Below are positions 6,001-61,726 of a DNA stretch of 64,000 nucleotides, one piece after another; position 1 is the first letter of the stretch; every line of letters starts with the position of its first letter. This stretch comes from an uncultured Gammaproteobacteria bacterium (GTDB lineage: Bacteria > Patescibacteriota > Patescibacteriia > CAZGFX01). Location of the stretch: positions 139,823 to 203,822 of the forward strand of contig CAZGFX010000001.1 of assembly GCA_964524845.1 (NCBI GenBank), written 5' to 3'. A program made the translations under genes and the position numbers. Under the pieces are notes generated by a model. The model made no database searches. It saw only the letters and a list, made by a program, of their open reading frames with translations, and was not told where the DNA came from.

Positions 6001-9000
6001 CAATAACTGTATTATCAGCAACAAGTGTTCCGTCGGGAGCATCAAACGATGTATCATACACTTGTGTCTTCGTGTAGAACGAAACAGTGTTTGAAGTTAC
6101 CGATTGAATAGGACCATTAACAGCGTATATACGAACAGCATATGTTGCACCGGCCGTAAGACCTGCAAGAGGAATAGACTCTACATCCTCTCCTGGAGTC
6201 GCACACGTTGAAAATCCTCCACCATTCACAGAACACTCCACAACGAAATTTTCTTCATCGTCTGAATTGTCAGTCCACGAAAGATCGATGCTAGTGTCGG
6301 TAATATTATCAAACGCTAAATTTGTCGGGGCATCTGGAGGAGTGATTATGTTCGCCGAGATAATAAGATTATCAAGAGAAGGACTCGTACTAAGCGCTGT
6401 TGATGATAAGTTAGCACGCACCCTAAGTGTTCTCGTTGGTGTCAAAGGTACGCTAACGGATGGAGTTATACTCGTCCATGACGATCCGCCGTTTGTTGAG
6501 TATTCATATGTTATATCAGTATCCACCGGTTTTGTTTCCGTAACTGTGATCAAAACCGAGTCTGCATATTGAACAGGACTTTGCGCAATCACATTATCTG
6601 TTGTAAGCGTTCCTGTCAGAGTAACATAAGGATTATTATATGATAATTTTTTCACAATAATATCTCCCGCGCTTGTGTCTCTATGAATAAGAGCTCCTGT
6701 ATTTCCAAAAAATACGAGGGTATTTGCTGTACCGCTTGCGCTGTGTGTATCAACAGAAATAGTATTAAAACCATTTGTTCCGTCAGATGGTTTTTTCCAC
6801 GCACTACCACTTCCCATAACAGAAAGCACCTGAACTGGTTGACCCACAACAGGTTCTTCAAACCAAGATACATAGAAACTTCCTTTCTGAATATTTACAG
6901 ACGGATGATAACTATCTTGTCCTGGGGTACTTGAAACAGAATCAAATCCCGTACTTCCGTCAGATGGTTTCTTCCACGAGTGATCACTTGAATCATAATA
7001 TGACACAACTATTTCGCGTGAACCACTTGCTCCTTCTTCCCATACTGCGTACATCGTATTGTTCCACGAGATAATATACGGATTAACACTTATTGCTGGA
7101 GTGTTTGAAATCGCGTCATATCCTGCCGTATCATCACTTGGTTTTACCCATGTGTGAGACGTTGTGTTAAATTTAGATATTACGATTTCAGTATTTCCAT
7201 CATCATTTATATCTCGATCCCGTATCAAATAAAGATCGCCGTTATGAGTCGTTAGACGAGGAAATTCATCCTCGTTTGCATCACTACCAATACTATCATA
7301 TCCTACCGTATCATCACTTGGTTTTACCCATGCTCCTCCTGAAAGTTTCGTTATACAAATATCAGGTTGTCCTCCTATCGTACACTGAGATGCTATATAT
7401 GGAACATTATTTACATCATATATAAATGGTTGTTGTGCTCCTACTGTATAAACAGTATCATTTCCTGCTAAACCAGTACTAGGAGCAACCCACGAAGTTC
7501 CATTAAATTTCGAAACATGGAGATCCGTATCATCAGCGACCCACATCACATATGCTTCGTTATTAACAGTACCAGCTGTCAAAAACGTGTAATCAATACC
7601 TCCTCCAGTGTTCGTGAGATTATCAAAACCGGCTATTGTTGGAGCAGTCGGTCTGGTCCATTCTGAAAATGCCGCGTTAGGACGCGAAACACGAACATCG
7701 TCACCCTGATTCCAAGCTGCAAAAACCATAGAAGATGTAGATCCAATAGAAACTTCTGACACAGTCGTTCCTGTTGTTATGTTTTTCGGTATTGTACTTA
7801 AGTTTATTATTTCAAGTCCGCCAAACTGAGAGATTCCATCCCCTGATTTTGTAACAGAAACATAATTTCCTGATACGAAAACCGATGTTGGAATCATCAT
7901 AGAAGCGCCACCTTCTCCATCGCTCACACTTTCCGCGTGTTTTGGATTTGCTGGATCTGATACATCTACAATCTCGAGAGCGCTTGAACTCTGACTTGCA
8001 ACATAAGCATAATTTCCTGAAACATAAACAGATACTGGTGTATCTAATAATGCTCCTCCTACTCCATTTACAATACTTCCCGCATGCACTGGATTTGCTG
8101 GATCTGATATATTAATAATTTCAAGTGCGTTTGAAACTTGACTCACAACATATGCATAACTTCCTGATACAAAAACTGAGCGAGGATAAATCAATAAGGA
8201 ACCACCTGACCCATGTGTTATATTTCCAACGTGTGTCGGATTTGCTGGATCTGATACATCGATTATTTCTAAGGCGTTTGAGTTTCGAGCTGTAACATAC
8301 GCATAATTTCCTGAAACATAAACTGAATTGGCATAATCCAACAACGCACCTCCTGTTCCGTGCGAGATACTTCCAACCTGTGTTGGATTTGCAGGATCCG
8401 ATACATCAAATATTCCTAAATTTCCTCCTATTCCAAACCAAGCATTCTCGTCAGTTGCAACATATGCGTAATTTCCCGACACGAAGACCGATTGAGGATT
8501 AATCAACGAGCCACCAAAAACACCTCCTGTGTGAGTCGGGTTTGTCGGATCTGACACATCAACAACCTCTAGATATCCTACACCAAATCCACTAGTTCCG
8601 CCTCCTACAACGTATGCGTAACCTCCTGATACAAAAACGGACAATGGCTCAAAAAGAAGCGAACCACCACCCAAATCTTCTCTTGTTAAACTTCCTGCAT
8701 GAACTGGATTTGCTGGATCTGATATATCAACGACCTTCAAAGCATTTGATACTGTGCTTGCTATATATGCATAATTTCCATCAACAAAAACAGAGTTTGG
8801 ATTTTCAAGTAATGATCCAATATCATTAGTAATACTTCCTACGTGTGTTGGATCTGTTGGATCAAAAACATTTAGTATTTCAAGTGCATTAGAGTTTGAA
8901 CTTGCAACATACGCCGTAGTTCCTGATACAAAAATAGAATAAGCATAATCTAACAGAGCTCCTCCCGACCCATGCGATATGCTTCCAAGAGGAGTTGGAT

Positions 9001-12965: not shown

Positions 12966-14480
12966 ATGGACATCGTTCGCGTAAAAAAACAACGCCCTCT
13001 GATCATATCAGAAAAACCTGTCAGTGCACCGATGGATGCGGAAAAAAGTTCAGACCAAAACCACGGAAACGCACACAGTACCACACCACCAACAACACAA
13101 AGACCACAAACTGATTTTTCATACTCAGAGAAAGAATCAAGACAGTTTTCAAAACAATCTCATACGAAAATTATAATAATCGCCTTAATGATAGCGATAA
13201 CGTTTTCTGTCTTCGGATATTGGTATTGGAAAAACGCAGTTCTTCTAAATACTCAAGGAGGAAATGAGCTTGGTTTTTTCCAACTTGTTGGACAAGTGAT
13301 CACTGGTGGTAATAGTATTCAAATAAAAGGAGAGAAGCGCGGACGTACAAATTTTTATCTAATGGGAATAGCGGACGAAAAACATGATGGATCAACATTG
13401 TCTGATAGTAATATTGTATTAAGTATTAATCACGAAACAAAAGAGCTCGCGATAATACACCTTCCGCGTGATATGGAGTTGAAAATAAATGGACTTGGAT
13501 ATCGCAAACTAAATTCAGTTCATGCTATCGGAGAAGCCATCCAAAAAGGATCAGGACCTGTTTATGCGTCAGAAATAATATCACAAACACTTTCATTACC
13601 AATTGATTATTATCTTAGGATTAATTTTTCCGGAGTGGTCGAAGTAATTGATGCGCTTGGAGGTGTTGGCGTCAATGTCGAGAACACATTCACAGATTAC
13701 AAATATCCTGACACAAATAATGGTTATATGACTGTAACGTTTAACGCAGGAAATCAGACCATGGACGGACAAACACTTCTTCAATATGTAAGATCAAGAC
13801 ACTCCGCAGAAAATAATGAGGGATCAGATTTTGCACGTGGAAAACGCCAGATGCGCGCCCTAGAAGCAGTCAAAAATAAAATTGAATCGCTTTCAATACT
13901 CACGGACTCCGATCTTATGTTATCAATCCTATCAATAATAAATAAATCAGCTAAGACAAATATGAAATCAGCTGAGGCGCTACGTTTGTATAATATTGTG
14001 AAAGACATACCTTCTGATCATATTTTCAGTACAGCACTTGATAATTCCGCATATGGACTCCTTATGGATGTTACAAACGATGATGGTGCTTATGCACTCA
14101 TCCCAACAGATAGCACTTACAATAAAATTCAAGAATATCTCCGCACTATATTCAGTTTAAACTCTCTTGAAAAAGAGAGGGCCAGTATCGTTGTGAGGAA
14201 CGGGAATGGTATTCCAGGAGAAGCTGGAGTTATCGGAAACAAGCTTGCGCGCAAAAATTTACGTGTTCTCAAGTCAGAAAATGCAGATAATTTTGATTAT
14301 ACGGAATCTGTTATTTATGATCTCTCAAACGGGAAAAAACCGGAAACACTCAAAACATTGAAAGAATTGCTTCCTCGTGTTAACGTGAGTTCTAATCCTC
14401 CGGATTTTATAAGAAATTCGGGCGATAATAGCAGTGATTTCGTTATCCTGCTTGGCAATGATCTTTCGTATCAAAATTAA
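12966..14480 (+). CDS. LytR-CpsA-Psr (LCP) family cell-envelope phosphotransferase with N-terminal TM anchor and C-terminal LytR_C-like domain
   Basis: TM helix IIIIALMIAITFSVFGYWYW. LCP core YLMGIADEKHDGSTLSDSNIVLSINHETKELAIIHLPRDMEL...KLNSVHAIG. Confidence 0.85.
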   Translation: MDIVRVKKQRPLIISEKPVSAPMDAEKSSDQNHGNAHSTTPPTTQRPQTDFSYSEKESRQFSKQSHTKIIIIALMIAITFSVFGYWYWKNAVLLNTQGGNELGFFQLVGQVITGGNSIQIKGEKRGRTNFYLMGIADEKHDGSTLSDSNIVLSINHETKELAIIHLPRDMELKINGLGYRKLNSVHAIGEAIQKGSGPVYASEIISQTLSLPIDYYLRINFSGVVEVIDALGGVGVNVENTFTDYKYPDTNNGYMTVTFNAGNQTMDGQTLLQYVRSRHSAENNEGSDFARGKRQMRALEAVKNKIESLSILTDSDLMLSILSIINKSAKTNMKSAEALRLYNIVKDIPSDHIFSTALDNSAYGLLMDVTNDDGAYALIPTDSTYNKIQEYLRTIFSLNSLEKERASIVVRNGNGIPGEAGVIGNKLARKNLRVLKSENADNFDYTESVIYDLSNGKKPETLKTLKELLPRVNVSSNPPDFIRNSGDNSSDFVILLGNDLSYQN

Positions 14481-17598: not shown

Positions 17599-20500
17599 TT
17601 GGGTATGATTGAGAAACACACAAAGAACGTATTTGGAATAAAAAATGACACGATTCTCGCGTGGCACTTGTTTATAAGTGCACAAAACAATCCAAACAAA
17701 CGCTTCATACATATTTGTGAAAAAAACACTGTTATATACTCTATTTCATTTCTTTTATCTTTTTTTAATGAGTTGTACGAAAAACACATTTCTATTTCAA
17801 AACTCAAAAAAGATTCTTCCTCTTCTTCCGAAGTTTTTAATGTTTTTCAATCTTCTTCCTCTGGAATCATATTGCTTCACAGAGATTATTGTAACGAACA
17901 TTTCCCATCAACAAAAACAATCAATGAGTCATCTCTGAATATTGATACAAGAGAAAATTATTCTCCTCAAAAAATTGGAGAAAAACTTATCGTACTTGGA
18001 TATGAAAGAGTATCTCATACGCCAAATCATGGGGAGTTCTCAATACATGGATCATCAATAGAAATACGCGAATCAAACGAAAACAAGGATGAGAGAATTA
18101 GAATCTATTTTGATGAAAACAGTATAGAAAAAATTAATATAAACAACACTGATGTATCGAAAATTTCAATTCCTCCTCGTTTTATTGATAACTTACCACG
18201 CACAGAGTCTATTTTTTCAATAATTTCAGAAAATGACGAGATCTCTTTATATCAAAAGAGTGATGAAACATTATTTATGCTCCCAGACGATATAAAATGT
18301 ACTATATATTCCGAAACGAAAAACACAGAAGAAAAAAACACGATTCAAGACATAAAAAATACCCCACATCATGCAAAATTAATAATTGATGCAATAAAAG
18401 AAAAAATAAACGAGAAATGGCACGTAATAATATGTTGTACGGAAGAAAATGAGCGAAATGTTCGTGCGGCGTGCCGCAGGCACGACTTCGATCCCTCGAA
18501 ATATCTTCGTGTTCTTCCAGAAGACCAGATCATACTTATTAACTCGTTTAGTGATGCGGCACGCCGCACACTCCTAATTAGAGACACCTCTTTCGTATAC
18601 GGAGAATATCGAAACGAAAAAAAGAAACAAAGAATTGACACCGCATTTATAATGAGTATCAGACCACACGATTATGTCGTGCATAGCGATCATGGTATTG
18701 GTATTTTTCATGGTATGGTCATGGCGAGTGTTGAAAATATATATCGCGAATACTTCGATATAAGATACGCCGAAAACGATAAACTACTTCTCCCCATCGA
18801 TCAGGCTGAAAAAATATCACGATACATAGGAATTGAACATCCGAAGATACACAGACTTGGCGGAACATCTTGGCACGAGACTACATTAAAAATAAAAGAG
18901 GATGCGATTATCACTGCTCATACGATGTTGAAAAATCATGCTATTCGCACAATAACAAGTGCTAATTCTTTCAATAAATCTCATCCGGACGAACAATCAA
19001 TAACAACAGAGTTCCCTCACCCCGAAACGGATGATCAATTAAAAGCAATAAACGATGTTTATCGTGATCTCGCACAAACAACACCGATGGACCGACTCGT
19101 TTGTGGAGATGTTGGGTTTGGAAAAACAGAAGTAGCTGTACGCGCTGCCGCTCGTGTCGTATTTGCAAATTATCAAGTGGCATTAATATGCCCGACTACT
19201 ATTTTGGCCCAACAACATTTTGATACATTTACAGAACGTTTCTCAAAATACGGTGTAGAAATCGAGCTTTTGTCGAGATTTAGGTCGTCTTCTGAGCAGA
19301 AAGAAAGTGTCAAAAAAATAAAAGAAGGAACCAGTAAGATTGTTATAGGAACCCATCGTCTCCTTTCATCAGATATTCATTTCCATAACCTTGGACTTAT
19401 AATCATTGACGAGGAACAACGTTTCGGCGTTGAACACAAGGAACTTCTTAGACAAATCAAAACGGGAACACATGCTATGACGATGACAGCAACGCCAATA
19501 CCACGAACACTTCATCTTTCTCTCGCTGGAATTCGAGATATGTCAGTAATTCAAACACCTCCTCATGGAAGAAAAGAGATTATCACGGATATTGCTCATT
19601 ATGATTTATCAATTATAAAAGAAACGATAAATAGAGAGTTAGAAAGAAATGGACAGGTGTATTATCTTTTTAACTCTGTTGCGAATATTCCGATAAAAGT
19701 AAAGGAGTTGCAAAAACTTATTCCGGAAGCACGAATTGAAAGTGTCCACGGACAACTCCCAGAAGAAGACATAGCTCGTGTCATGCACGCATTTGATACA
19801 GGAGTCGTCGATGTTTTGGTTTGCTCGACAATTATAGAAAACGGACTTGATATTCCAAATGCGAACACATTAATCGTCGAACACGCGAACGACTTCGGAT
19901 TATCTCAACTTCACCAAATTCGCGGAAGAGTCGGACGCTCCGATCGTCAAGCATACGCATTATTTACATATGACAGCCAAATTCTGGTCGGAAACGCGTG
20001 GAAACGCCTTGAGGCTCTTTCCACCTCTTCTTCGCTTGGCGGAGGGTTCGAACTTGCTTTAAGAGACTTGGAAATACGCGGAGTCGGAAACCTTCTCGGA
20101 ACAGAACAGCATGGCCGCGTATCAGCAATCGGTATCACGATGTATAACAAGCTCATAACACATGCGATAAATGAGATTCAAAGCGGAGTACCACGCACAC
20201 GCTCCCACGATGTTGTTATTGATCTTCCAATAGAATATGGAATACCTTCTTCCTATATACACGACGAAATATATCGCTTGAAACTATATCAAGCTCTTGC
20301 GGGAATTGCGGACACCGATTCGCTCGCTGAAGAATTCCTTGCAATTGAGAAGAAATACGGCGCGCTCCCGCATCATATAACAAATCTTCACATGATTCTT
20401 AATATGAAACTTCGATGCCAAAACTCCCCCATCAAGTCTATCGAAATGAAAAAAATCCGCACCGCCGGAGATGAGATAAGAGAAAAAATAATCATTACAT

Positions 20501-21532: not shown

Positions 21533-24500
21533 TTATCGTGATTTTTTTATAAACTGATTCCAAACATTAGTATTATGCATATTAAGATGTTTAACAATTC
21601 CTCTTAAAACCGGAAGAATTATTTTATTTGCAGATGCATTTACTTCTATATTCTTTGCATTTTTTTCAGAGCGCTTTTGTCCGGTTTTTGTAAAATCTAC
21701 AAAACCCAAAACATTTAAGCCATAATCAATGGAAGCAAAACCACCCTGAACATTTTCCTTTGGATCATATACATTATAAATGTTTTTTACTGACGATGGA
21801 TTTTTTATAGTATATTCATCTCTCACAGGAACAGCGAGTAAAATTAACTTGTCTACGCTTTTCTTTAAGCCTCTATTTATTGTTTCTATAGCAACATTTC
21901 CTCCGTGACTAAAGCCTATAATATTTAATTCTTCGTCCTCAGCAAACTTATAATCATTAATGTAATTAGCAACTCCAATAGCCGCTTCTGAGCGCGCGGT
22001 CGGATTATTGTCTCCAGACCAACTCAATACAGTATACGCATATTTTTCGTTTAAATCTTTTGCGCTTTGTTGAATAAAAATATCATCAAAAGATTCTTTT
22101 CCACAATCAGTACAATCTTTTTTAAGTGGTTGAGTGCCGTTTAAAGCAATTGTTAACTCTCCAGTCGGATCCACAAACTTAACAGGATTATTCCTCGCAT
22201 ACGCGTAAGCATTCCATTGCTGAGGATCTGTGAAGTAGTTTTCACTTGATGTTAAACGAGCAACAGGATCCACACTTATAAACCTCCCAATCTCAGGGTG
22301 ATAATAGCGTGCGTGGTAGTAGTATAAGCCTGTTCCTTCATCTTTTTCTTGTCCTGTGAATTGGTACTTGGTGTTGAAGTCCGGTGTTCCTAGAGATTCA
22401 TCAATTCTAGTCTCTCCAAAGGGATAATAGTCCCTTTGCACTTGTATTGTACCACGTATATCCGTGATAATTGAAGATCCTCCAAGATGATCTGAGTGTA
22501 TGTATCCCAGTGTCTCTGATGAGGGTTCTTGGACGTTGTTTCTTGCTATATGAGCTATGGACGTATCATTCATAGATAGATATATGTTCTCATTTCCTGA
22601 TAACAAGTCCTTATCAATCATTGGATTGATTTGGATAGTGTTTTCGGTGTATGTTTCAGGTTCATCTGTTTTTATTGCACGAGATGCTATACGCTCTCCA
22701 GATGGATCGTATGTGTAGGAATATACAGTTTTCTCTGTGTTGATTGCGGACATACGAAGAGTAGGGTCGTATACGAACTGTTTGTTTATACATCCAAATC
22801 CTTCTTCTTCACATGTTTCTGATATCATGTTTCCTGCGTTATCGTATGCGAAGTTTTTATAAAGAACGTCGTCTTTATACATACGCGCAACGGCTTGTGG
22901 TTGTCGCATGCCATACTCAAAACGCGTATTTCCTTTCGTTAATATGTTTCCTGTTTTTGAGTATGAGAAACGAGTAGACTGGTCTGTTTCTCCTGCAACA
23001 ACGTGTTCTGATTCTAGACGATCAAGGTCATCATATATGTATTCAGCTTTTTTCGCTGTTAGATTATCAACTTTGTTTATTATGTTTGTGATATTTGCGT
23101 TTTGATCATATGAATATGATATATCTTGCAATACTTCTCCTCTAGTGTTTGTTGTTATCTTGCGTGTAAGGCGATAATCTGTGTTTGCGGAGCGAGTGAA
23201 CGATTCTGTGTCTCCGTTGCCATATACGATATTGGAAACTTGTCCTGTTGGTTCATAAGAGACTTGGGAAATGATTATGTTTTCATCTTTTATCAGTGAT
23301 GTGAGTTTTCCATAATCATCGTATTCATACGAAACGACTGTTCCTAAAGTATCAGGAAGAGTTATTGTTAATAATCTGTCTAAATGATCGTATATAGCCG
23401 TACTTTGATATGATTCATTATCAATCGTCTTTATTTCGTTAATGATATTACCGTGAGTATCATACTGATATCTGATATCAATATCAGGAGTTATTATTCT
23501 TATTGGTTTTCCAATTTCAAGTCCATCGGTTCCATAAAAATATGTTGTATAATCAATTCCATTTCTGCTTTCTTTTGTTGGTCTGTTTAAAATATCATAC
23601 TCATATGAAATTACGTTTCCATTGGGATCGGTAGATGAGATTATGTTATTGTTTACATCATAAGCATAATGCCACGCCCGAACTAGTCCCGGTCCGCCCT
23701 CCATAAATCCTCCAGAAAGCTCCGTTGCGTATGTTCTTCTTCCATATCCATCATACCCGAATGAACGAGTATTTCCTTCGGCGTCTTGAAATCCGACAAG
23801 AAGTCCTTTTGCATCGTGTCTATATATTGTGTTTTGTTCTACTTCTTTATTGTATTCGGTAAGTGTCATAATGTTTCCATAAGCATCTGTAATCGTCTTT
23901 GAATTGATTCCACGAGGGTTTGTAACGATTGTTTCAAATCCATTATACGCATACGATGTTGTTCCTGTCTGTGTTGCAACTGTCAAAGGTCTTGTGAGCG
24001 CATCGTATGTTGTGGTTGTTCCCGGGCGAATTGTAGACCAGTTTGCAGTATCAAACGAATCAGACGAGTTAAAATAAGGATGAGATGAGTATATGGTATT
24101 CCCTTTTTCATCATAATGAGTATCTGTAACAACATAACTCGATGGTGAAAACTGTTGTTTTGATTCAAGTGTTCTGCCAAACCCATCTCTATGTGTAATA
24201 GCACGAACATAAGAAGAAGGATTGTTTACATGTATATGTGTTCGAACTTCCGTATTTTGAGGAATTACAGTATCCCTATACACATAAGTATTTTTAAGAA
24301 CAGGAGTTTCCGTTGAACTTATATCTGAAACAGAGTACGAGAGAGCGCGTCCGAGTCCATCGTACGAATACCAAGCGGTAAGGCCTGTTGGAGCAGTTAC
24401 AGACAAAGGATGACCAAATGAATACTCCCATGTATATGTGGTAACTAGATCTGGACTTGCTGATCCCCCGTTTTCATTTGATTCGGTAACGAAATAATGA

Positions 24501-27500
24501 TGAATCGGATCGTATTCAACAACTGTAATCGCTCCGTTTGGACGAGTTATTTGTATTACATTTCCATATGAATCATATTCATATTGTGTGGAACGATCAG
24601 ATGGAGTAATAAAATCGTATTCTTTTTCAATTGTCTTGTCTCCGATGTTTATATTTCCAAGCGTCTCAAATCCATCGTAGAAATATTCGGATCGCGCAAC
24701 ACGATTTACATACCAATCATAAAGTTCCTGCCATGATGGATATGCGATAATATGTGCTGATTCGTTGAGTGCATATCCTGTTTTTGTTGTGCGAGTGTCT
24801 CCTGAAATATCAGAGAACGTACCGGCAGATGAATTATAATTCACTTTTCCGTATTCTGTTTTTTCAGTAACACGAGCAAACGAATCATACGTATATCCTA
24901 CCGCAACTGATGAGGAGTCCTTTGTTGAGATATCATACTCAGATCCTATGGCAACGTCTCCGTTATTTAGAGATATTAAATTATGACGTGTATAGGATGT
25001 TGAAAGCATAGAACCTGTACTTGAATACATCTCTGTCTTATAAGAAGTTTTCAAAAGCCTGTAATCATCAATACCCTCGTCTCCTGTTGCTCCATTTCCT
25101 TGATGAAAATACGAAACGGAATAAGTACCATCTCCATATACTTCTTTTGTTAATCCAAACCCTGCAAACTCCGATCTCATAGCCATATCGTATGAATTAG
25201 GACCATCTTCAAAATACCATACTCCGTTTTTATACTGATATGTCGTTGTCATTGGAGATCCGAACCCGGTATCAACCGTCATCTGTTCGACAGTCTGAAT
25301 AACTCTCGGTAGATTAGGATTTGAAAGACTCCCGTTCGCTTCTTTGTAATGAGATGATGGTTTATATGAAAGAGCAATACTTCCTCCCTTGCCGTTTGAT
25401 ACGTTCGTCATGATATCTGGGAGTTTGTATTTATGGAGTAATGAATACATCTTTCTATTATAATTTCCCGTGTTTGGGCTTAAATAATCAGAATCATAAG
25501 TATCATGAACCCCCATAAGCACATCAACAAGACCATCTGCGTTTATGTCAATATGCTCTGATCCACCAAATTGATAATATGCACCATTTACCATGAGTTT
25601 ATTTAAAAACATATATATCCACTGTCCGCTTCCACCATACAAAAAGTTCCAACCATTAACAGTGTTATTTATATATAAAGCATTGTATCCGACCAAATCA
25701 GGATATCCATCTCCATTCCAATCAATAATTTCAACCGCTTGTGTTCCGGCTGTCGAACCAGAATCATAAAAAGTTGGGACAGGTGCTTGCCATAAAGATG
25801 TTTCAACAAATTTTGACCCATTATTTAAGAGAGTTTTTCTAATAGCCGTATTATTTAGAGTATAAGAAATAACTACATCCTCTAGACCATCGGCATTCAC
25901 ATCCATATACCGTGTTCCACCCTCTCTAAAATAATCATTTTGATTAAAAACAGGATTAAAATATTCTTGTTTCCATGACATTTCTGTACCCCTATAACCA
26001 AATGTCATTCCCCATGACATATTTTCTCTATTAAGAGCAAAGCCCTCTTGGTTATTTGAAAAACCCTGATAATATTGATTATGAATAAAATCAAGAAGAT
26101 TATCACCGTTTAAATCAACGCTGTTTACACCAGAACTACTATAATTACCTTCAAAAAACGAGAATAAATAATTTGTTGCTCCATTCTGTCCCGATGGCGT
26201 ACAAGTATTCCAATCAATTTTTTGAGAATTCGAACCAACGGACATTTCCGGAACAGTATCATTATCAACATCAATATATTCATAACCACCATATTCGTGA
26301 TTATCTGAATTTAAATAAAGATATTTATTTGTACTAAAATAAGGAATTTGGGAAATATTACATTGATTTGTAATATTTGTGAAACCGTCCGTTGTTTGTG
26401 TCGTGAGTTCAGGAATTCTAGTCCATACTGTATTGTTTTTGTATACGCTTTTTCTGTTTGATATAGGATTATTGTTTTGATGAGGATAAATTGAATTGTT
26501 ATATGAGTTGTGGGAATACAAAATATCAGGATATGCATCCCCATTTATATCAATAAAACGAGCCGGACGAGAATTATTTCCATAAGTGACGGTTTCAGGC
26601 ATCACCTCAAGAGAATAATTATATGCCGTTGGAGACGCGTCTCCTTGTTGGTATGTTAGATTTGTTTCAGGAAGCGCCGAAAAACCACCGGTTCCATTAG
26701 ACATGTATGGATGAACGGATGACAAAAGATATCTGTTTGTTTCGTTTGATTTGGTGTATGTGATATCCCAGTAATATTTCACTATATTATCATATACGTA
26801 TGATATTTTATTTACCTGGTACTTAAAATATCTTTTAAACCCAGCGTTGTAACTAACTCTCTTATCGGGTCGCTCGTTCGCAACACTTGTCCCTTCATAA
26901 AAAGGACTGAATCTTATTTCATAAGAATTAGATCCGCCAAAAACGATTTGTTTCGGATAAGCGACACCTTCTTCTATATGATAATTATATGTAATTGTGT
27001 TTCCGTGTGTATCAATTACTTGATCAAGAAGCCATTCGTATGCTCCATCATAAATTACTGATGGGTTAATTGGATTTAATGGTATGTTTGGTTTTATCTG
27101 TTTATTATTCGTTCCGAAAACATATCTTGTGCCATTTCCATCAATCACTTCAAATGTTCCCGAGTTTGTTGAACCAGCTTGATAATTAAATAATATTTTA
27201 TAATTAGCATTATTATTTCCTGTGATTGAGAAATCATTTTTATATGCCAAAGTACCAGAATCTATTGAACAACCATTTGTTTGATCATATTTTTCTTTAA
27301 ATTCAAAAGAACCTGATGGAAGTTGTGCTGTAAAATAAGAACAGTTTGAGCTCTGAGTACCAGATACGTTATATAATTGATCTGTCCCACGATTGTTTTT
27401 AAGAGTAATTTTTGGCATTGATACATCCCACCCGTGTGCAATTGTTGTAAAGTCATTCGAATTTGATGAGTCATAGAAAAGCGCAACAGAAGGTGTTATT

Positions 27501-27958
27501 GATGAAACATTTTCCGGTATAGGAAATCCTAATGTGTAATTAAAAGAACCCGTTGCTTTATCAACCCCATAAGTCTCTTTTATCTCCATCGGCGAATACG
27601 AGTTCTTCTTTACACCCGTATTTACAGGAGTATAAAGCTCTCCAATATCTATGCCATTTGGGTTTGTTTCTGTTGGAAGACTCTCCGTTTCGTTTTGTGT
27701 TTGTTCTGTATTTTGGTTTTGATCATCCTGACCATTTTCTTCTCCTTGTGTATTATTCGTCTCATTATTCGATAAATCAACGTTTGTTTGGTTTGTTTCA
27801 GCCAATTGATCGGTGGAATTTCCTGACGATTGTGCTGTTTCATTAACTACTGGATCACTTACAATTGGTGTTTCATCCGTAGCAAATGATGCATACGGAA
27901 AAATAAATGTCGGTATAATAATAATATACACGATCATTCGAATAATTTGTTTTGGCAT
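21533..27958 (-). CDS. RHS/YD-repeat polymorphic toxin (2141 aa). It has a signal peptide, an N/Q/T-rich low-complexity linker, FG-GAP/VCBS-like beta-propeller repeats, many YD repeats, an RHS core ending in PVKFVDPTGE (the PxxxxDPxG autoproteolysis motif), and a C-terminal alpha/beta-hydrolase (GFSHGG) predicted lipase/esterase toxin domain of about 230 aa.
   Basis: YD repeats (YTYDALTRPLT, YEYDILNRP, YQYDTHGN, YSYDQNANI, YIYDDLDRL...). FG-GAP-like DINGDAYPDIL, DLNGDNLLDF, DVNADGLEDV, DWNGDGYPDL, DINADGLVDV. Core end ...YYHARYYHPEIGRFISVDP...NPVKFVDPTGE. C-terminal GxSxG nucleophile elbow NIIGFSHGGNVA with downstream candidate Asp/His residues. Confidence 0.9.
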   Translation of the reverse strand: MPKQIIRMIVYIIIIPTFIFPYASFATDETPIVSDPVVNETAQSSGNSTDQLAETNQTNVDLSNNETNNTQGEENGQDDQNQNTEQTQNETESLPTETNPNGIDIGELYTPVNTGVKKNSYSPMEIKETYGVDKATGSFNYTLGFPIPENVSSITPSVALFYDSSNSNDFTTIAHGWDVSMPKITLKNNRGTDQLYNVSGTQSSNCSYFTAQLPSGSFEFKEKYDQTNGCSIDSGTLAYKNDFSITGNNNANYKILFNYQAGSTNSGTFEVIDGNGTRYVFGTNNKQIKPNIPLNPINPSVIYDGAYEWLLDQVIDTHGNTITYNYHIEEGVAYPKQIVFGGSNSYEIRFSPFYEGTSVANERPDKRVSYNAGFKRYFKYQVNKISYVYDNIVKYYWDITYTKSNETNRYLLSSVHPYMSNGTGGFSALPETNLTYQQGDASPTAYNYSLEVMPETVTYGNNSRPARFIDINGDAYPDILYSHNSYNNSIYPHQNNNPISNRKSVYKNNTVWTRIPELTTQTTDGFTNITNQCNISQIPYFSTNKYLYLNSDNHEYGGYEYIDVDNDTVPEMSVGSNSQKIDWNTCTPSGQNGATNYLFSFFEGNYSSSGVNSVDLNGDNLLDFIHNQYYQGFSNNQEGFALNRENMSWGMTFGYRGTEMSWKQEYFNPVFNQNDYFREGGTRYMDVNADGLEDVVISYTLNNTAIRKTLLNNGSKFVETSLWQAPVPTFYDSGSTAGTQAVEIIDWNGDGYPDLVGYNALYINNTVNGWNFLYGGSGQWIYMFLNKLMVNGAYYQFGGSEHIDINADGLVDVLMGVHDTYDSDYLSPNTGNYNRKMYSLLHKYKLPDIMTNVSNGKGGSIALSYKPSSHYKEANGSLSNPNLPRVIQTVEQMTVDTGFGSPMTTTYQYKNGVWYFEDGPNSYDMAMRSEFAGFGLTKEVYGDGTYSVSYFHQGNGATGDEGIDDYRLLKTSYKTEMYSSTGSMLSTSYTRHNLISLNNGDVAIGSEYDISTKDSSSVAVGYTYDSFARVTEKTEYGKVNYNSSAGTFSDISGDTRTTKTGYALNESAHIIAYPSWQELYDWYVNRVARSEYFYDGFETLGNINIGDKTIEKEYDFITPSDRSTQYEYDSYGNVIQITRPNGAITVVEYDPIHHYFVTESNENGGSASPDLVTTYTWEYSFGHPLSVTAPTGLTAWYSYDGLGRALSYSVSDISSTETPVLKNTYVYRDTVIPQNTEVRTHIHVNNPSSYVRAITHRDGFGRTLESKQQFSPSSYVVTDTHYDEKGNTIYSSHPYFNSSDSFDTANWSTIRPGTTTTYDALTRPLTVATQTGTTSYAYNGFETIVTNPRGINSKTITDAYGNIMTLTEYNKEVEQNTIYRHDAKGLLVGFQDAEGNTRSFGYDGYGRRTYATELSGGFMEGGPGLVRAWHYAYDVNNNIISSTDPNGNVISYEYDILNRPTKESRNGIDYTTYFYGTDGLEIGKPIRIITPDIDIRYQYDTHGNIINEIKTIDNESYQSTAIYDHLDRLLTITLPDTLGTVVSYEYDDYGKLTSLIKDENIIISQVSYEPTGQVSNIVYGNGDTESFTRSANTDYRLTRKITTNTRGEVLQDISYSYDQNANITNIINKVDNLTAKKAEYIYDDLDRLESEHVVAGETDQSTRFSYSKTGNILTKGNTRFEYGMRQPQAVARMYKDDVLYKNFAYDNAGNMISETCEEEGFGCINKQFVYDPTLRMSAINTEKTVYSYTYDPSGERIASRAIKTDEPETYTENTIQINPMIDKDLLSGNENIYLSMNDTSIAHIARNNVQEPSSETLGYIHSDHLGGSSIITDIRGTIQVQRDYYPFGETRIDESLGTPDFNTKYQFTGQEKDEGTGLYYYHARYYHPEIGRFISVDPVARLTSSENYFTDPQQWNAYAYARNNPVKFVDPTGELTIALNGTQPLKKDCTDCGKESFDDIFIQQSAKDLNEKYAYTVLSWSGDNNPTARSEAAIGVANYINDYKFAEDEELNIIGFSHGGNVAIETINRGLKKSVDKLILLAVPVRDEYTIKNPSSVKNIYNVYDPKENVQGGFASIDYGLNVLGFVDFTKTGQKRSEKNAKNIEVNASANKIILPVLRGIVKHLNMHNTNVWNQFIKKSR
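22448..22925. repeat. Direct repeat copy A (inside the RHS gene) of the segment duplicated at 20665-21140
   Basis: See copy B. Confidence 0.75.
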
Positions 27959-35228: not shown

Positions 35229-35401
35229 GATAGAACTTTAAAAGTATTATGTGGCCTTATCTTACTAAAAAATCATAATTTATTCAACGACGGAAACACC
35301 ATTTCAAGGCGTGATTAACACATATAAAAAGAGTTGATTTAATTGGCTAACATAGTATACTTTCTATCGTTAGAAATGAATGCTTTTATTAATTTATACA
35401 T

Positions 35402-35779
35402 GCCCGGATGGCGGAACTGGTATGCCTGATCTAGTTTATCCCGTTCGCGGGACTTTGCGGGATACCAGGCAGGCATTCTGCAATCAGATGCGGCCTCCGC
35501 CGCAATCTAACATTTGGCCCTCGTTTGCTTCGCGCACTCGGGATGCAGTAGGCCTGATCCCGCTTTGCGGGATACCTGGCAGGCATTCTGCAAGAGGATC
35601 CCGCCACCGCGGGAATCTAACATTTGGCCCTCGTTTGCTTCGCGCACTCGGGATGCAGTAGGCCTGATCCCGCTTTGCGGGATACCTGGCAGGCATTCTG
35701 CAAGAGGATCCCGCCACCGCGGGAATCTAACATTTGGCCCTCGTTTGCTTCGCGCACTCGGGATGCAGTAGACGCGCAG
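35402..35779 (+). repeat. Interrupted partial copy of tRNA-Leu. Nucleotides 1-21 (35402-35422) and 22-30 (gacgcgcag, 35771-35779) are split by a GC-rich array of 3 tandem units of 129, 110 and 110 bp at 35423-35770. Units 2 and 3 are identical; unit 1 is diverged with compensatory hairpin changes.
   Basis: Direct sequence reading. The units begin gcctgatcc... and end ...cactcgggatgcagtag. Predicted plus ORFs 35380..35872 are repeat artefacts. About 10 nt of 5' leader is also duplicated (tttatacatGCCCGG vs ttttacatGCCCGG). Confidence 0.85.
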
Positions 35780-35822
35780 AATAAAAAGAAGTACATTATT
35801 AGAAAGAGTTTATATTTTACAT

Positions 35823-35910
35823 GCCCGGATGGCGGAACTGGTAGACGCGCAGGACTCAAAATCCTGTTCTAGATAATAGAGTGAGAGTTCGATTCTCTCT
35901 CCGGGCACCA
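35823..35910 (+). tRNA. tRNA-Leu(CAA), class II with a long variable arm and encoded CCA
   Basis: Folded by hand: acceptor GCCCGGA/TCCGGGC, 3-bp D stem GCG/CGC, anticodon stem CAGGA/TCCTG, loop CTCAAAA, T arm GAGAG-TTCGATT-CTCTC, discriminator A, CCA. Confidence 0.9.
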
Positions 35911-36052
35911 GCCTTCGCTCTGCGAGCTACGGCTGGCGCAGCCAGTCGTAAAGCGAGCAGCTAAGAGAAGTGCTAGTCCTTCCGAAGTTCCGCGAAGTGG
36001 AACGAAGGAGGACACAATTCTTTTTTTGTACAACAAAACATTTCTCACACAT

Positions 36053-36128
36053 GGCTAGGTAGCTCAGTTGGTAGAGCACAGGACTCATAAGCCTGCGGTC
36101 GCGAGTTCAAGCCTCGCCCTAGCCACCA
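36053..36128 (+). tRNA. tRNA with CAT anticodon, elongator Met type (possibly tRNA-Ile2/lysidine); G1-C72 paired; encoded CCA
   Basis: Acceptor GGCTAGG/CCTAGCC, D arm GCTC-AGTTGGTA-GAGC, anticodon loop CTCATAA, T loop GTTCAAG. Confidence 0.85.
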
Positions 36129-50596: not shown

Positions 50597-50819
50597 CATG
50601 GAGAGGTGGCCCTGATACGTTCTAGCTAGCGCCAGAACTACAGGACAAAACCTTTCTAAAAAGTTTCTACTAGGAATTATTTGTTCTTTATAATATTATT
50701 TCATCATATGGAGAGGTGGCCCTGATACGTTCTAGCTAGCGCTAGAACTACAGGGCAAAACCTTTCTAAAAAGTTTCTACTAGGAATTATTTGTTCTTTA
50801 TAATATTATTTCATCATAT
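50597..50819 (+). repeat. Two tandem 111-bp and 110-bp units preceding tRNA-Ser. Each unit starts with the first 12-14 nt of the tRNA (atGGAGAGGTGGCC) and then 97-99 nt of non-tRNA sequence ending in a TATAAT-containing promoter-like segment.
   Basis: Direct reading: units at 50597-50707 and 50708-50817, with 2 mismatches between them. The third iteration is the intact tRNA. Confidence 0.85.
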
Positions 50820-50910
50820 GGAGAGGTGGCCGAGTTGGCTGAAGGCACCACATTGCTAACGTGGCAGGGAGTAAAATCCCTCGGAGGTTCGAATCCTCTC
50901 CTCTCCGCCA
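50820..50910 (+). tRNA. tRNA-Ser(GCT), class II with a long variable arm and encoded CCA
   Basis: Acceptor GGAGAGG/CCTCTCC, anticodon loop TTGCTAA, variable arm CAGGGAGTAAAATCCCTCG, T loop TTCGAAT, discriminator G. Confidence 0.9.
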
Positions 50911-51011
50911 TAGATTTGACAGGCTCGCCGTAGGTGAGGCTATCAAATCTATTGATAGGATAGAGAGGATGAGAAGTTTATGCCCGGAGTCACGAAGTGA
51001 CGAACGGGTAA

Positions 51012-51035
51012 ATCCTCTCCTCTCCGCCATAGATA
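51012..51035 (+). repeat. Exact 24-nt duplicate of the tRNA-Ser 3' end (aatcctctcctctccgccatagat; the original is at 50892-50915), 120 bp downstream. This resembles an att-like 3' fragment or a further tandem-repeat unit.
   Basis: Direct reading. The intervening 96 nt contains hairpins (gtcacgaagtgac). Confidence 0.85.
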
Positions 51036-51097
51036 TTTATTATCGGAGTTGTCCTATATACATAGGTATGTAGTGCGACATAGATACATAAATAATG

Positions 51098-51128
51098 GAA
51101 AACAAAAATACACGAGTAGTTCGTGTTT
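51098..51128 (+). terminator. Rho-independent terminator (acacgagtagttcgtgt followed by T7)
   Basis: Hairpin with T-run downstream of the tRNA-Ser array. Confidence 0.7.
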
Positions 51129-61456: not shown

Positions 61457-61533
<77 letters not shown>

Positions 61534-61726
61534 TTCTTCGCTCGTTAGAGTGAAATTACGAACGATATAACTATAAGAATTTATTCTACAAAGCATTTTT
61601 GCTTTGTTTTTTTGTGCTAAATTAAGCCTTTTTATATATTATTCAACCATACTATTGACTTTTCTGTAAGTGTATGATATTATCATACGATTAAAACAAA
61701 ACCAAAATAAAATAAGGAGAATTGAA

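Follow-up and report, generated by a model that had tools for sequence, protein, structure and literature searches.

The 64,000-nt stretch of contig CAZGFX010000001.1 analysed here (the window) comes from a bacterium of the Patescibacteria, or Candidate Phyla Radiation (CPR), and carries four tRNA genes on which ARAGORN and Rfam agree, namely those for tRNA-Leu(CAA), tRNA-Met, tRNA-Ser(GCT) and initiator tRNA-Met (61457-61533; the other three are given in Table 1). The tRNA-Ser gene is preceded by two tandem copies of a short module that begins with the 5' end of the tRNA itself and is followed by a displaced copy of its 3' end, and the tRNA-Leu gene is preceded by a displaced copy of its 5' part that is interrupted by further tandem repeats. 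We describe both loci below and consider whether their repeats may be remnants of a cassette, found at tRNA genes of other bacteria, that encodes a small nuclease of the GIY-YIG family.

Upstream of tRNA-Ser, Tandem Repeats Finder (TRF) reports a repeat at 50598-50831 with a period of 110, 2.1 copies, 98% identity and a score of 454. The sequence ATGGAGAGGTGGCC, which comprises two leader nucleotides and nt 1-12 of tRNA-Ser(GCT), occurs three times at a spacing of 110 nt. A first-pass annotation of this DNA, made by reading the sequence alone, had described two units of 111 and 110 bp that begin with the tRNA start; the two units and their beginnings are as described, and the repeat search gives both a length of 110 bp. 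Exactly where the tRNA fragment breaks off in the D-arm (after nt 12), each unit continues with a hairpin closed by CCTG and CAGG, the inner part of which has an 8-bp stem and a 4-nt loop. One of the two substitutions in copy 2 makes this inner stem a perfect 8 bp, and the z-scores of the hairpin folded as DNA are -1.9 in copy 1 and -4.8 in copy 2; folded as RNA, the 5' unit is weakly structured (z -1.8). The AT-rich remainder of the unit bears no resemblance to the native leader that precedes unit 1 (P 0.61). The first module can therefore not have arisen by mere tandem duplication of the leader and tRNA start, as it requires the placement of some 96 nt of other DNA between two tRNA starts.

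On the downstream side, the exact 24-nt copy of the tRNA 3' end that had been reported at first reading is confirmed. The sequence AATCCTCTCCTCTCCGCCATAGAT is found at 50892 and again at 51011, a spacing of 119 nt with 95 bp between the repeats, and consists of 19 nt of the tRNA 3' end and 5 nt of trailer; the downstream copy begins 101 nt 3' of the gene. As the 24-mer includes 5 nt past the CCA, it was copied as DNA and not from the mature tRNA. Two strong hairpins are located between tRNA-Ser and the 3' copy, and the region 50911-51020 has a z-score of -7.3 when folded as RNA. Hairpins with a C(GNA)G triloop are present in the trailers of both tRNA-Leu (35911-36010) and tRNA-Ser (50982-51009), with a similar layout of outer stem, GA, inner stem, GAA, inner stem and GAA; perfect GNA-triloop hairpins were too few for any statement about a genome-wide family.

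At tRNA-Leu, TRF reports a repeat at 35453-35771 with a period of 110 and 2.9 copies. The architecture had been considered the same as that of the Ser locus, and the period of about 110 bp and the tRNA 5' fragment are indeed common to both. In place of fragment-led units, however, the Leu locus is, to judge from its sequence, one displaced tRNA 5' fragment whose D-loop is split by an insert that has itself been amplified. The trailer of tRNA-Leu (fold z -4.4) is not followed by a copy of the tRNA-Leu 3' end. The sequence (C/T)CTTCGCTC immediately follows the CCA in the trailers of both tRNA-Leu (35908-35925) and initiator tRNA-Met (61531-61548).

Every junction of the repeats is reproduced in short-read contigs of SRR12133403, the single sequencing run recovered by exact-protein look-ups; these contigs end inside the repeats. 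As they are seen in separate short-read contigs, the junctions are independently supported, and the copy number (two at Ser and three at Leu) is that of this assembly alone.

Table 1. Features of the tRNA-Leu and tRNA-Ser loci in the window
Feature	Position	Strand	Evidence
Displaced 13 leader nt and tRNA-Leu(CAA) nt 1-21, downstream of a promoter-like site (35334-35361)	35389-35422	+	repeat search; blastn; promoter scan
Three GC-rich tandem units (128, 110 and 110 nt) in the D-loop of the displaced fragment	35423-35770	+	TRF, repeat search, folds
Displaced tRNA-Leu resumes (nt 19-30), then 43-nt AT-rich spacer (35780-35822)	35768-35779	+	blastn
Intact tRNA-Leu(CAA), then structured trailer (35911-36010) and tRNA-Met (36053-36128)	35823-35910	+	ARAGORN, Rfam, fold
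Ser module copy 1, 110 bp: 2 leader nt, tRNA-Ser nt 1-12, hairpin and 63-nt AT-rich new leader	50598-50707	+	TRF, repeat search
Ser module copy 2, 110 bp: 98% identity to copy 1, two substitutions	50708-50817	+	repeat search, sequence comparison
Displaced tRNA-Ser nt 1-12	50600-50611; second copy 50710-50721	+	blastn of tRNA against window; repeat search
Ser 5' hairpin, CCTG...CAGG closing; inner 20-nt palindromic hairpin at 50619-50638	50611-50644; second copy 50721-50754	+	DNA folds, inverted-repeat search
TATAAT, possible -10, no good -35	50689-50694; second copy 50799-50804	+	motif search; no promoter called by scan
Intact tRNA-Ser(GCT), CCA encoded	50820-50910	+	ARAGORN; Rfam tRNA 50.9 bits
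Long hairpin directly after CCA; outer arm includes trailer TAGAT; loop C(GTA)G	50910-50952	+	inverted-repeat search; DNA fold z -7.2
Pseudo T-arm: GAGAGGAT pairs with ATCCTCTC, enclosing GC-rich hairpin 2 (50982-51009) at the T-loop position	50963-51019	+	minimum free energy structure, inverted-repeat search
Displaced tRNA-Ser nt 73-91 and 5 nt of trailer, exact repeat of 50892-50915	51011-51034	+	repeat search; blastn
Terminator-like hairpin and T run, likely end of the tRNA-Ser transcription unit	51110-51126	+	terminator prediction

A GIY-YIG nuclease cassette at tRNA genes

In a census of TopA-linked CPR loci, which counted exact self-copies of a tRNA of at least 12 nt located within 600 nt and outside annotated tRNAs, 14 of the 75 tRNAs possessed such a copy, compared with a chance expectation of about 0.4 in total by our rough estimate. 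Self-fragments are thus present at other tRNA genes and in relatives, and the suggestion in the first-pass annotation of a recurring process at tRNA ends, as opposed to a one-off slippage, is upheld.

Some tRNA genes of relatives and of more distant bacteria are associated with a cassette in which the native leader is followed by the 5' part of the tRNA, a GC-rich hairpin in the D-arm, a short further stretch of tRNA, an open reading frame (ORF) of 77-83 codons and, a few bases past the stop codon, the intact tRNA. The hairpin is often exactly CCTGCCTGCCGGCAGGCAGG, a 20-bp palindrome to which we refer as canonical; GC hairpins of the CCCGCC...GGCGGG type, nested palindromes and double insertions are found as well. 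The ORF encodes a bare GIY-YIG catalytic domain of 77-83 aa (Pfam PF01541, E 1e-17 to 1e-21), whose nearest solved relatives are the UPF0213 proteins and the structure-specific nuclease SLX1. More than 7,000 proteins of the collection belong to this nuclease family, with names from CPR, Bacteroidales, Sphingobacteriales, Ignavibacteriales and others. Full cassettes were found in CPR at tRNA-iMet (locus L034) and tRNA-Leu (L054, L057, L065, L087 and L094), and outside CPR in Sphingobacteriales (L090/L091) and on a viral contig at tRNA-Arg (L084); by context look-ups, the design is represented in Harrisonbacteria, Kerfeldbacteria, Sphingobacteriales and a viral contig. A mirror form is seen in Gracilimonas, whereby the intact tRNA and its terminator precede the ORF, which is followed by the 3' part of the tRNA with the palindrome in its T-arm and by a duplicate of the terminator. 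Locus L086 has this form.

A scan of metagenome contigs with the nuclease ORF, using a query that favours the tRNA-Leu subfamily, yielded 80 loci, 11 of which are truncated by contig ends, leaving 69 evaluable. A tRNA-Leu gene starts 0-24 nt after the stop codon of the ORF in 44 of the 80 loci, 15 have tRNA-Leu just before the ORF and a palindrome-bearing tRNA copy after it, and 10 are variants, nine of them with tRNA-Leu in the locus. Overall, tRNA-Leu is found within the locus of ~2 kb in 68 of the 69 evaluable nuclease copies and directly adjoins the ORF in 59. Most displaced fragments are of local origin: 27 of the 41 that could be read agree with the adjacent tRNA at each of their first 10 nt. 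Where the palindrome interrupts a tRNA copy, it does so as a clean insert of 20 bp, located either in the anticodon loop or behind nt 12, 15 or 23; in the mirror form it is placed in the T-loop, between TTCGA and TTCC. Rfam searches of eight cassette loci brought only tRNAs to threshold, and no family covers the region of the fragment and palindrome. In the full-text literature that was searched (many subscription papers lie outside it) we found no description of the palindrome sequence or of a tRNA-associated small GIY-YIG cassette.

The nuclease ORFs of contigs labelled CPR and of Bacteroidales and Sphingobacteriales are 70-74% identical over their full length (P0011, P0031 and others against the ORF of L054). 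This is far above the identity of housekeeping proteins across these phyla and suggests recent horizontal spread; the TopA of the window, by comparison, reaches no more than 55% identity to any CPR TopA found. Among the 22 tRNA-Leu(CAA) genes in the TopA-linked CPR loci, three have an ORF cassette, five have gene-less fragments (the window included) and 14 are clean, a patchy distribution that is the pattern expected of a mobile element gained and lost. The site at tRNA-Leu in the window is that of a full cassette in three CPR genomes. This patchy syntenic distribution and the cross-phylum identity of ~70% are indirect evidence that the nuclease may act as a homing endonuclease.

Decayed, gene-less and tandem module forms exist alongside the two orientations of the cassette and its patchy distribution. 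For example, in L145 (117 nt), L155 (100 nt) and L171 a nuclease-bearing module is followed by a second module that lacks an ORF; this combines a tRNA fragment and the palindrome with an AT-rich leader, and the distance from the start of the fragment to that of the tRNA is 100-117 nt. Two tandem displaced fragments are present in L199, whole ORF-bearing modules form tandem arrays in L148, L160 and L198, and the nuclease ORF of L142 contains an in-frame stop. A stand-alone gene-less module of 98 nt precedes tRNA-Ile in L062, which also has an 18-nt copy of a tRNA-Val 3' end behind a GC hairpin. In L070 (reverse-complement 18590-18750 and 13860-14015) two tRNA-Ile genes (ARAGORN anticodons TAT and GAT) are each preceded by their own first 17-18 nt; these copies are followed by an insert of ~77 nt with two hairpins, and the leader of the second gene (~60 nt) is also duplicated. 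Neither a nuclease ORF nor a canonical palindrome is present in the tRNA-Ile modules of L070.

Further arrangements are found at tRNA-Leu. A near full-length pseudo-tRNA-Leu located downstream of an intact tRNA-Leu (L072:9240-9465) is interrupted by hairpins four times: in its anticodon loop, variable region and T-loop and, by the canonical palindrome, before the acceptor 3' strand. In L050:15270-15535, L051:15840-16080 and L052:6750-6945 the 5' and 3' halves of one tRNA-Leu enclose an intact tRNA-Leu(CAA) with a different acceptor stem; in L050 the split of the outer tRNA falls exactly in the anticodon loop, and the sequences on either side of the inner gene are able to pair with each other. 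Hairpins of the CTTCGC/GCGAAG type recur in the Leu units of the window and in the inserts of L070, L072 and L090.

Origin of the modules in the window

On balance we favour the view that the Ser repeats are gene-less footprints of a tRNA-invading GIY-YIG cassette that were later amplified by means of the repeats it had created. Like the cassettes, the window loci contain same-strand partial copies of the adjacent tRNA's own end (of the 5' end twice and the 3' end once at Ser, and of the 5' end at Leu), and these copies are broken in a loop or arm of the tRNA by a GC-rich hairpin (after nt 12 in the Ser 5' copies, in the T-loop in the Ser 3' copy and after nt 21 at Leu). The break after nt 12 coincides with one of the palindrome insertion sites of the cassettes, the 8-bp stem and 4-nt loop of the inner Ser hairpin have the same geometry as the canonical palindrome, and the Ser 3' copy resembles the mirror form in that a GC hairpin precedes it and its start lies in the T-loop. 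The period of 110 bp in the window compares with 98-117 bp for gene-less modules, and tandem arrays of modules are known from other loci; by size the Ser units fit the gene-less type. It is by architecture only that the Ser units would be linked to the cassette. The Leu locus is better supported as a cassette footprint, and we hold that assignment with greater confidence than the one at Ser. Its site is shared, each Leu unit opens with a hairpin whose stem (TGCCTG/CAGGCA) corresponds to the inner portion of the canonical palindrome, and the half-site GGCAGGCA occurs in the window only in the three Leu units, where 0.63 occurrences are expected for the whole window.

By analogy with GIY-YIG homing endonucleases such as SegB of phage T4, the nuclease would cut a cassette-free tRNA gene, and repair would copy the cassette in. 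The design of the cassette suggests that it supplies a replacement tRNA end, which would keep an essential tRNA functional while the old end is displaced together with its native promoter or terminator. The direct repeat that flanks the ORF would otherwise allow recombination to delete the cassette; by interrupting this repeat in the displaced copy, the hairpin may hinder precise deletion, and may persist for this reason. In the present genome the nuclease gene would have been lost at both Ser and Leu. The short direct repeats left behind (14 nt at Ser) could then have given rise, by unequal recombination or slippage, to two Ser modules and three Leu insert units, with the AT-rich ~63 nt of the Ser unit now acting as a leader, either for the copy that follows or for the real gene. 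The downstream copy of 24 nt at Ser would represent the mirror-image version, with a hairpin at the T-loop position ahead of the displaced 3' end.

Several observations weigh against a cassette origin. The canonical palindrome has no match in the window with up to three mismatches, and the Ser hairpin shares with it only the 4+4-nt ends CCTG/CAGG. There is no ORF between the displaced copy and the tRNA at either Ser or Leu, and no nuclease remnant was detected in the spacers when the hidden Markov model (HMM) of the family was run against the six frames of the window (E = 23 and 38, outside the top matches). The Ser sequence that follows the hairpin is not a recognisable continuation of the tRNA (P 0.82), although most canonical modules do continue. 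Searches of the window and of ~2 Mb of fetched loci revealed no homologue of the Ser or Leu units. The motif CCTGAT that had been noticed at first reading is present at the junctions of both loci, but the two inserts do not align significantly (local alignment, P ~0.39) and show no sign of wider similarity. No nuclease cassette was found beside a tRNA-Ser gene, the metagenomic query being biased to the tRNA-Leu subfamily. Finally, the exact palindrome occurs in 35 viral-contig stretches (L095-L129), as well as at L015:1279 and L072:9429, mostly in intergenic-looking positions, and the viral copies nearly always lack a tRNA or GIY-YIG gene within 900 nt; the insertion of hairpins may thus be a separate process. 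A resemblance by eye of TFLKS..GI (Ser unit) and NKKKYIIRK (Leu spacer) to the C-terminus of the nuclease is unsupported by the family HMM and was dropped.

It is possible, if unlikely, that the units arose by purely local rearrangement, whereby slippage or unequal crossing-over between short repeats both made and amplified them with no involvement of a mobile element. The step from one copy to two certainly needs only the 14-nt repeats, and the absence of homologues of the units and of a nuclease remnant is as this explanation would have it. Slippage provides a second copy, however, and not the first module, with its 96-nt insert unlike the native leader between two tRNA starts. Nor does local rearrangement account readily for the mirror structure at the 3' end of the same tRNA-Ser gene, for the frequency of the architecture among CPR tRNAs in the census, or for breakpoints that lie in tRNA loops beside GC hairpins, as they do in nuclease-bearing cassettes.

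A second, rather improbable, alternative is that the hairpin itself is the mobile agent, in that GC-rich palindromes insert in tRNA loops and provoke partial duplications, with the GIY-YIG gene as an occasional partner or passenger that was never in the window modules. The free palindromes of the viral contigs speak for this proposal. These may be present in multiple copies per contig (three in L101 and four in L115), and some are flanked by direct repeats of 7-8 nt (for example CACAGAGA in L097 and TTGCGGA in L113), so that the free palindrome appears to behave like a tiny mobile insert. The palindrome is also nested within itself in L094, L135 and L179, pseudo-tRNAs such as that of L072 have acquired four different hairpins, and gene-less modules exist. 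In tRNA contexts, however, the palindrome is almost always 30-60 nt or less from a nuclease ORF. It is moreover a clean 20-bp insertion in the pseudo-tRNAs, where it entails no tRNA duplication of its own, and the duplicated tRNA segment flanks the ORF rather than the hairpin. Two viral contigs (L096:8570-8660 and L119:2240-2330) have the palindrome at the variable-loop position of an otherwise intact-looking tRNA-Met, and ARAGORN still calls the tRNA of L119; the palindrome may be tolerated there as an extra arm.

It is very unlikely that the structure is an adaptive or regulatory one, in which tandem promoter modules boost the expression of tRNA-Ser or the units encode a functional structured leader or trailer RNA. 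The first-pass annotation had credited every unit with a promoter-like element, and each Ser unit does contain a TATAAT 15 nt ahead of the next tRNA start, a spacing similar to the 13 nt of the canonical promoter of tRNA-iMet in the window; the TATAAT of a module might act as the promoter of tRNA-Ser. Nevertheless this box is a bare hexamer lacking an acceptable -35, a promoter scan of the Ser repeat region called no promoter on the + strand, and TATAAT is common in the window (135 in 64 kb), and the promoter claim was therefore dropped. Duplication of a promoter module, one of the origins initially suggested, would be a consequence of the amplification of the modules and not their origin. With respect to a functional RNA, the very stable fold of the 3' trailer is set against the weak RNA fold of the 5' unit, and searches with Rfam, including its self-cleaving ribozymes, brought only tRNAs to threshold in the window at either gathering or permissive settings, hammerhead-like matches being far below it. 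Elsewhere, furthermore, the same architecture is occupied by a nuclease gene.

Least probable of all is that the repeats are the attL and attR footprints of a tRNA-targeting integrative element that inserted and was later deleted, as had also been suggested: the 24-nt repeat, which runs past the CCA into the trailer, does resemble an integrase crossover site, but only 95 bp separate the two copies, no integrase, recombinase or transposase domain is recorded in the genes within ~10 kb on either side, and the D-arm-broken 5' fragments and breakpoint hairpins would be left unexplained. Among the origins first put forward, the one closest to the comparative data is a small non-autonomous element accompanied by a tRNA 5'-end duplication, although the autonomous form, with its GIY-YIG gene and palindrome, is not visible from the window. 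The modules were not classified as a miniature inverted-repeat transposable element or other transposon, as the flanking repeats differ in length (14 and 24 nt), the inserts on the two sides of the gene are not related and further copies are lacking in the window and in the ~2 Mb of fetched loci.

Related systems, host and significance

The GIY-YIG cassette has counterparts in fungal mitochondria, for example at atp6 of Allomyces, where mobile ORFs of the GIY-YIG and LAGLIDADG types carry a replacement gene end, so that the host gene remains intact with a partial duplicate beside it. The target there is an organelle protein-coding gene, in contrast to the bacterial tRNA gene, tRNA-loop breakpoints and 20-bp palindrome in the displaced copy that characterise the cassette. 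Yeast mitochondrial GC clusters and the double-hairpin elements of Allomyces are short GC-rich palindromic inserts that are scattered in AT-rich DNA and cluster near mobile ORFs. Their sequences and hosts differ from those of the palindrome described here, the exact 20-mer of which is common to CPR, Bacteroidota and viral contigs.

Among tRNA-associated systems, repeats that lie 3' of a tRNA gene and finish with its duplicated 3' end are also known from the tyrT/RtT arrangement of Escherichia coli (RF00391). The tyrT system lacks both a counterpart on the 5' side and a T-loop breakpoint marked by a hairpin, and the candidate match of the window to RtT RNA was rejected (20.3 bits, E 0.27; threshold 45 bits), as it rests on the tRNA-derived end. 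Integration at tRNA genes through att sites is similar in that a direct repeat of the tRNA end flanks the insert and the tRNA is restored by the incoming copy; the Ser locus differs in having inserts of 95-96 bp, unequal repeats (14 and 24 nt) and 5' breakpoints in the D-arm, with no integrase nearby. The SegB protein of phage T4 is a GIY-YIG homing endonuclease encoded in a tRNA gene cluster, which cuts the tRNA region of a relative that lacks the SegB gene and is inherited preferentially (PMC2330249). SegB resembles the cassette in that a small GIY-YIG nuclease gene is lodged among tRNA genes, and differs in that SegB has a DNA-binding part; neither duplicated tRNA ends nor a palindrome are reported for it. 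The nuclease of the cassette, in contrast, is a bare catalytic domain of 77-83 aa that is chromosomal in at least two bacterial phyla, and the window itself has no nuclease gene.

The closest TopA sequences to that of the host in the genome collection are those of metagenome-assembled genomes of Patescibacteria. These are at most 55% identical to it; the host belongs to a CPR lineage of which few members have been sampled. The genes that flank the loci are of ordinary cellular types, encoding Mfd, TopA, RelA/SpoT, ParAB and ClpB. Elsewhere in the window, a tandem repeat of 147 nt (7943-8409; 3.2 copies, 73% identity) and dense repeats of 9-63 nt rich in CCACC/CCTCC inside ORFs near the start (1754-2180) are probably repetitive coding sequence of surface proteins. 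The minus strand at 21533-27958 encodes a toxin-like polymorphic protein of 2141 aa with domains of the SpvB, FG-GAP and RHS-repeat types; its host is a CPR bacterium with a small genome.

If a cassette origin is correct, the Ser and Leu repeats are inert-looking leftovers, neither a new RNA gene nor a regulatory device, and the cassette family is the more interesting result. We would go further only tentatively, and with rather less conviction than for the footprints themselves, in proposing that the repeats of the window are decayed members of an undescribed class of selfish elements that spans phyla and combines a bare SLX1/UPF0213-like GIY-YIG nuclease with a mobile 20-bp palindrome. Such elements would invade tRNA genes (mainly those for tRNA-Leu, but also tRNA-iMet and tRNA-Arg and, by inference, tRNA-Ser and tRNA-Ile), rebuild the gene with a spare end, leave hairpin-marked fragments behind and rewrite the leaders and promoters of tRNAs in about a fifth of Patescibacteria tRNA loci. 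Odd tRNA fragments and short tandem repeats beside the tRNA genes of CPR and Bacteroidota would then share one recognisable cause, which annotation pipelines could flag; such repeats would also break short-read assemblies, as seen here. The nuclease of 77 aa, the palindrome of 20 bp and the tRNA target would constitute a compact, testable system for the study of site recognition by a domain-only GIY-YIG enzyme, and could show how a selfish element spares an essential single-copy gene. It would also follow that tRNA transcription in reduced genomes often proceeds from element-derived leaders.

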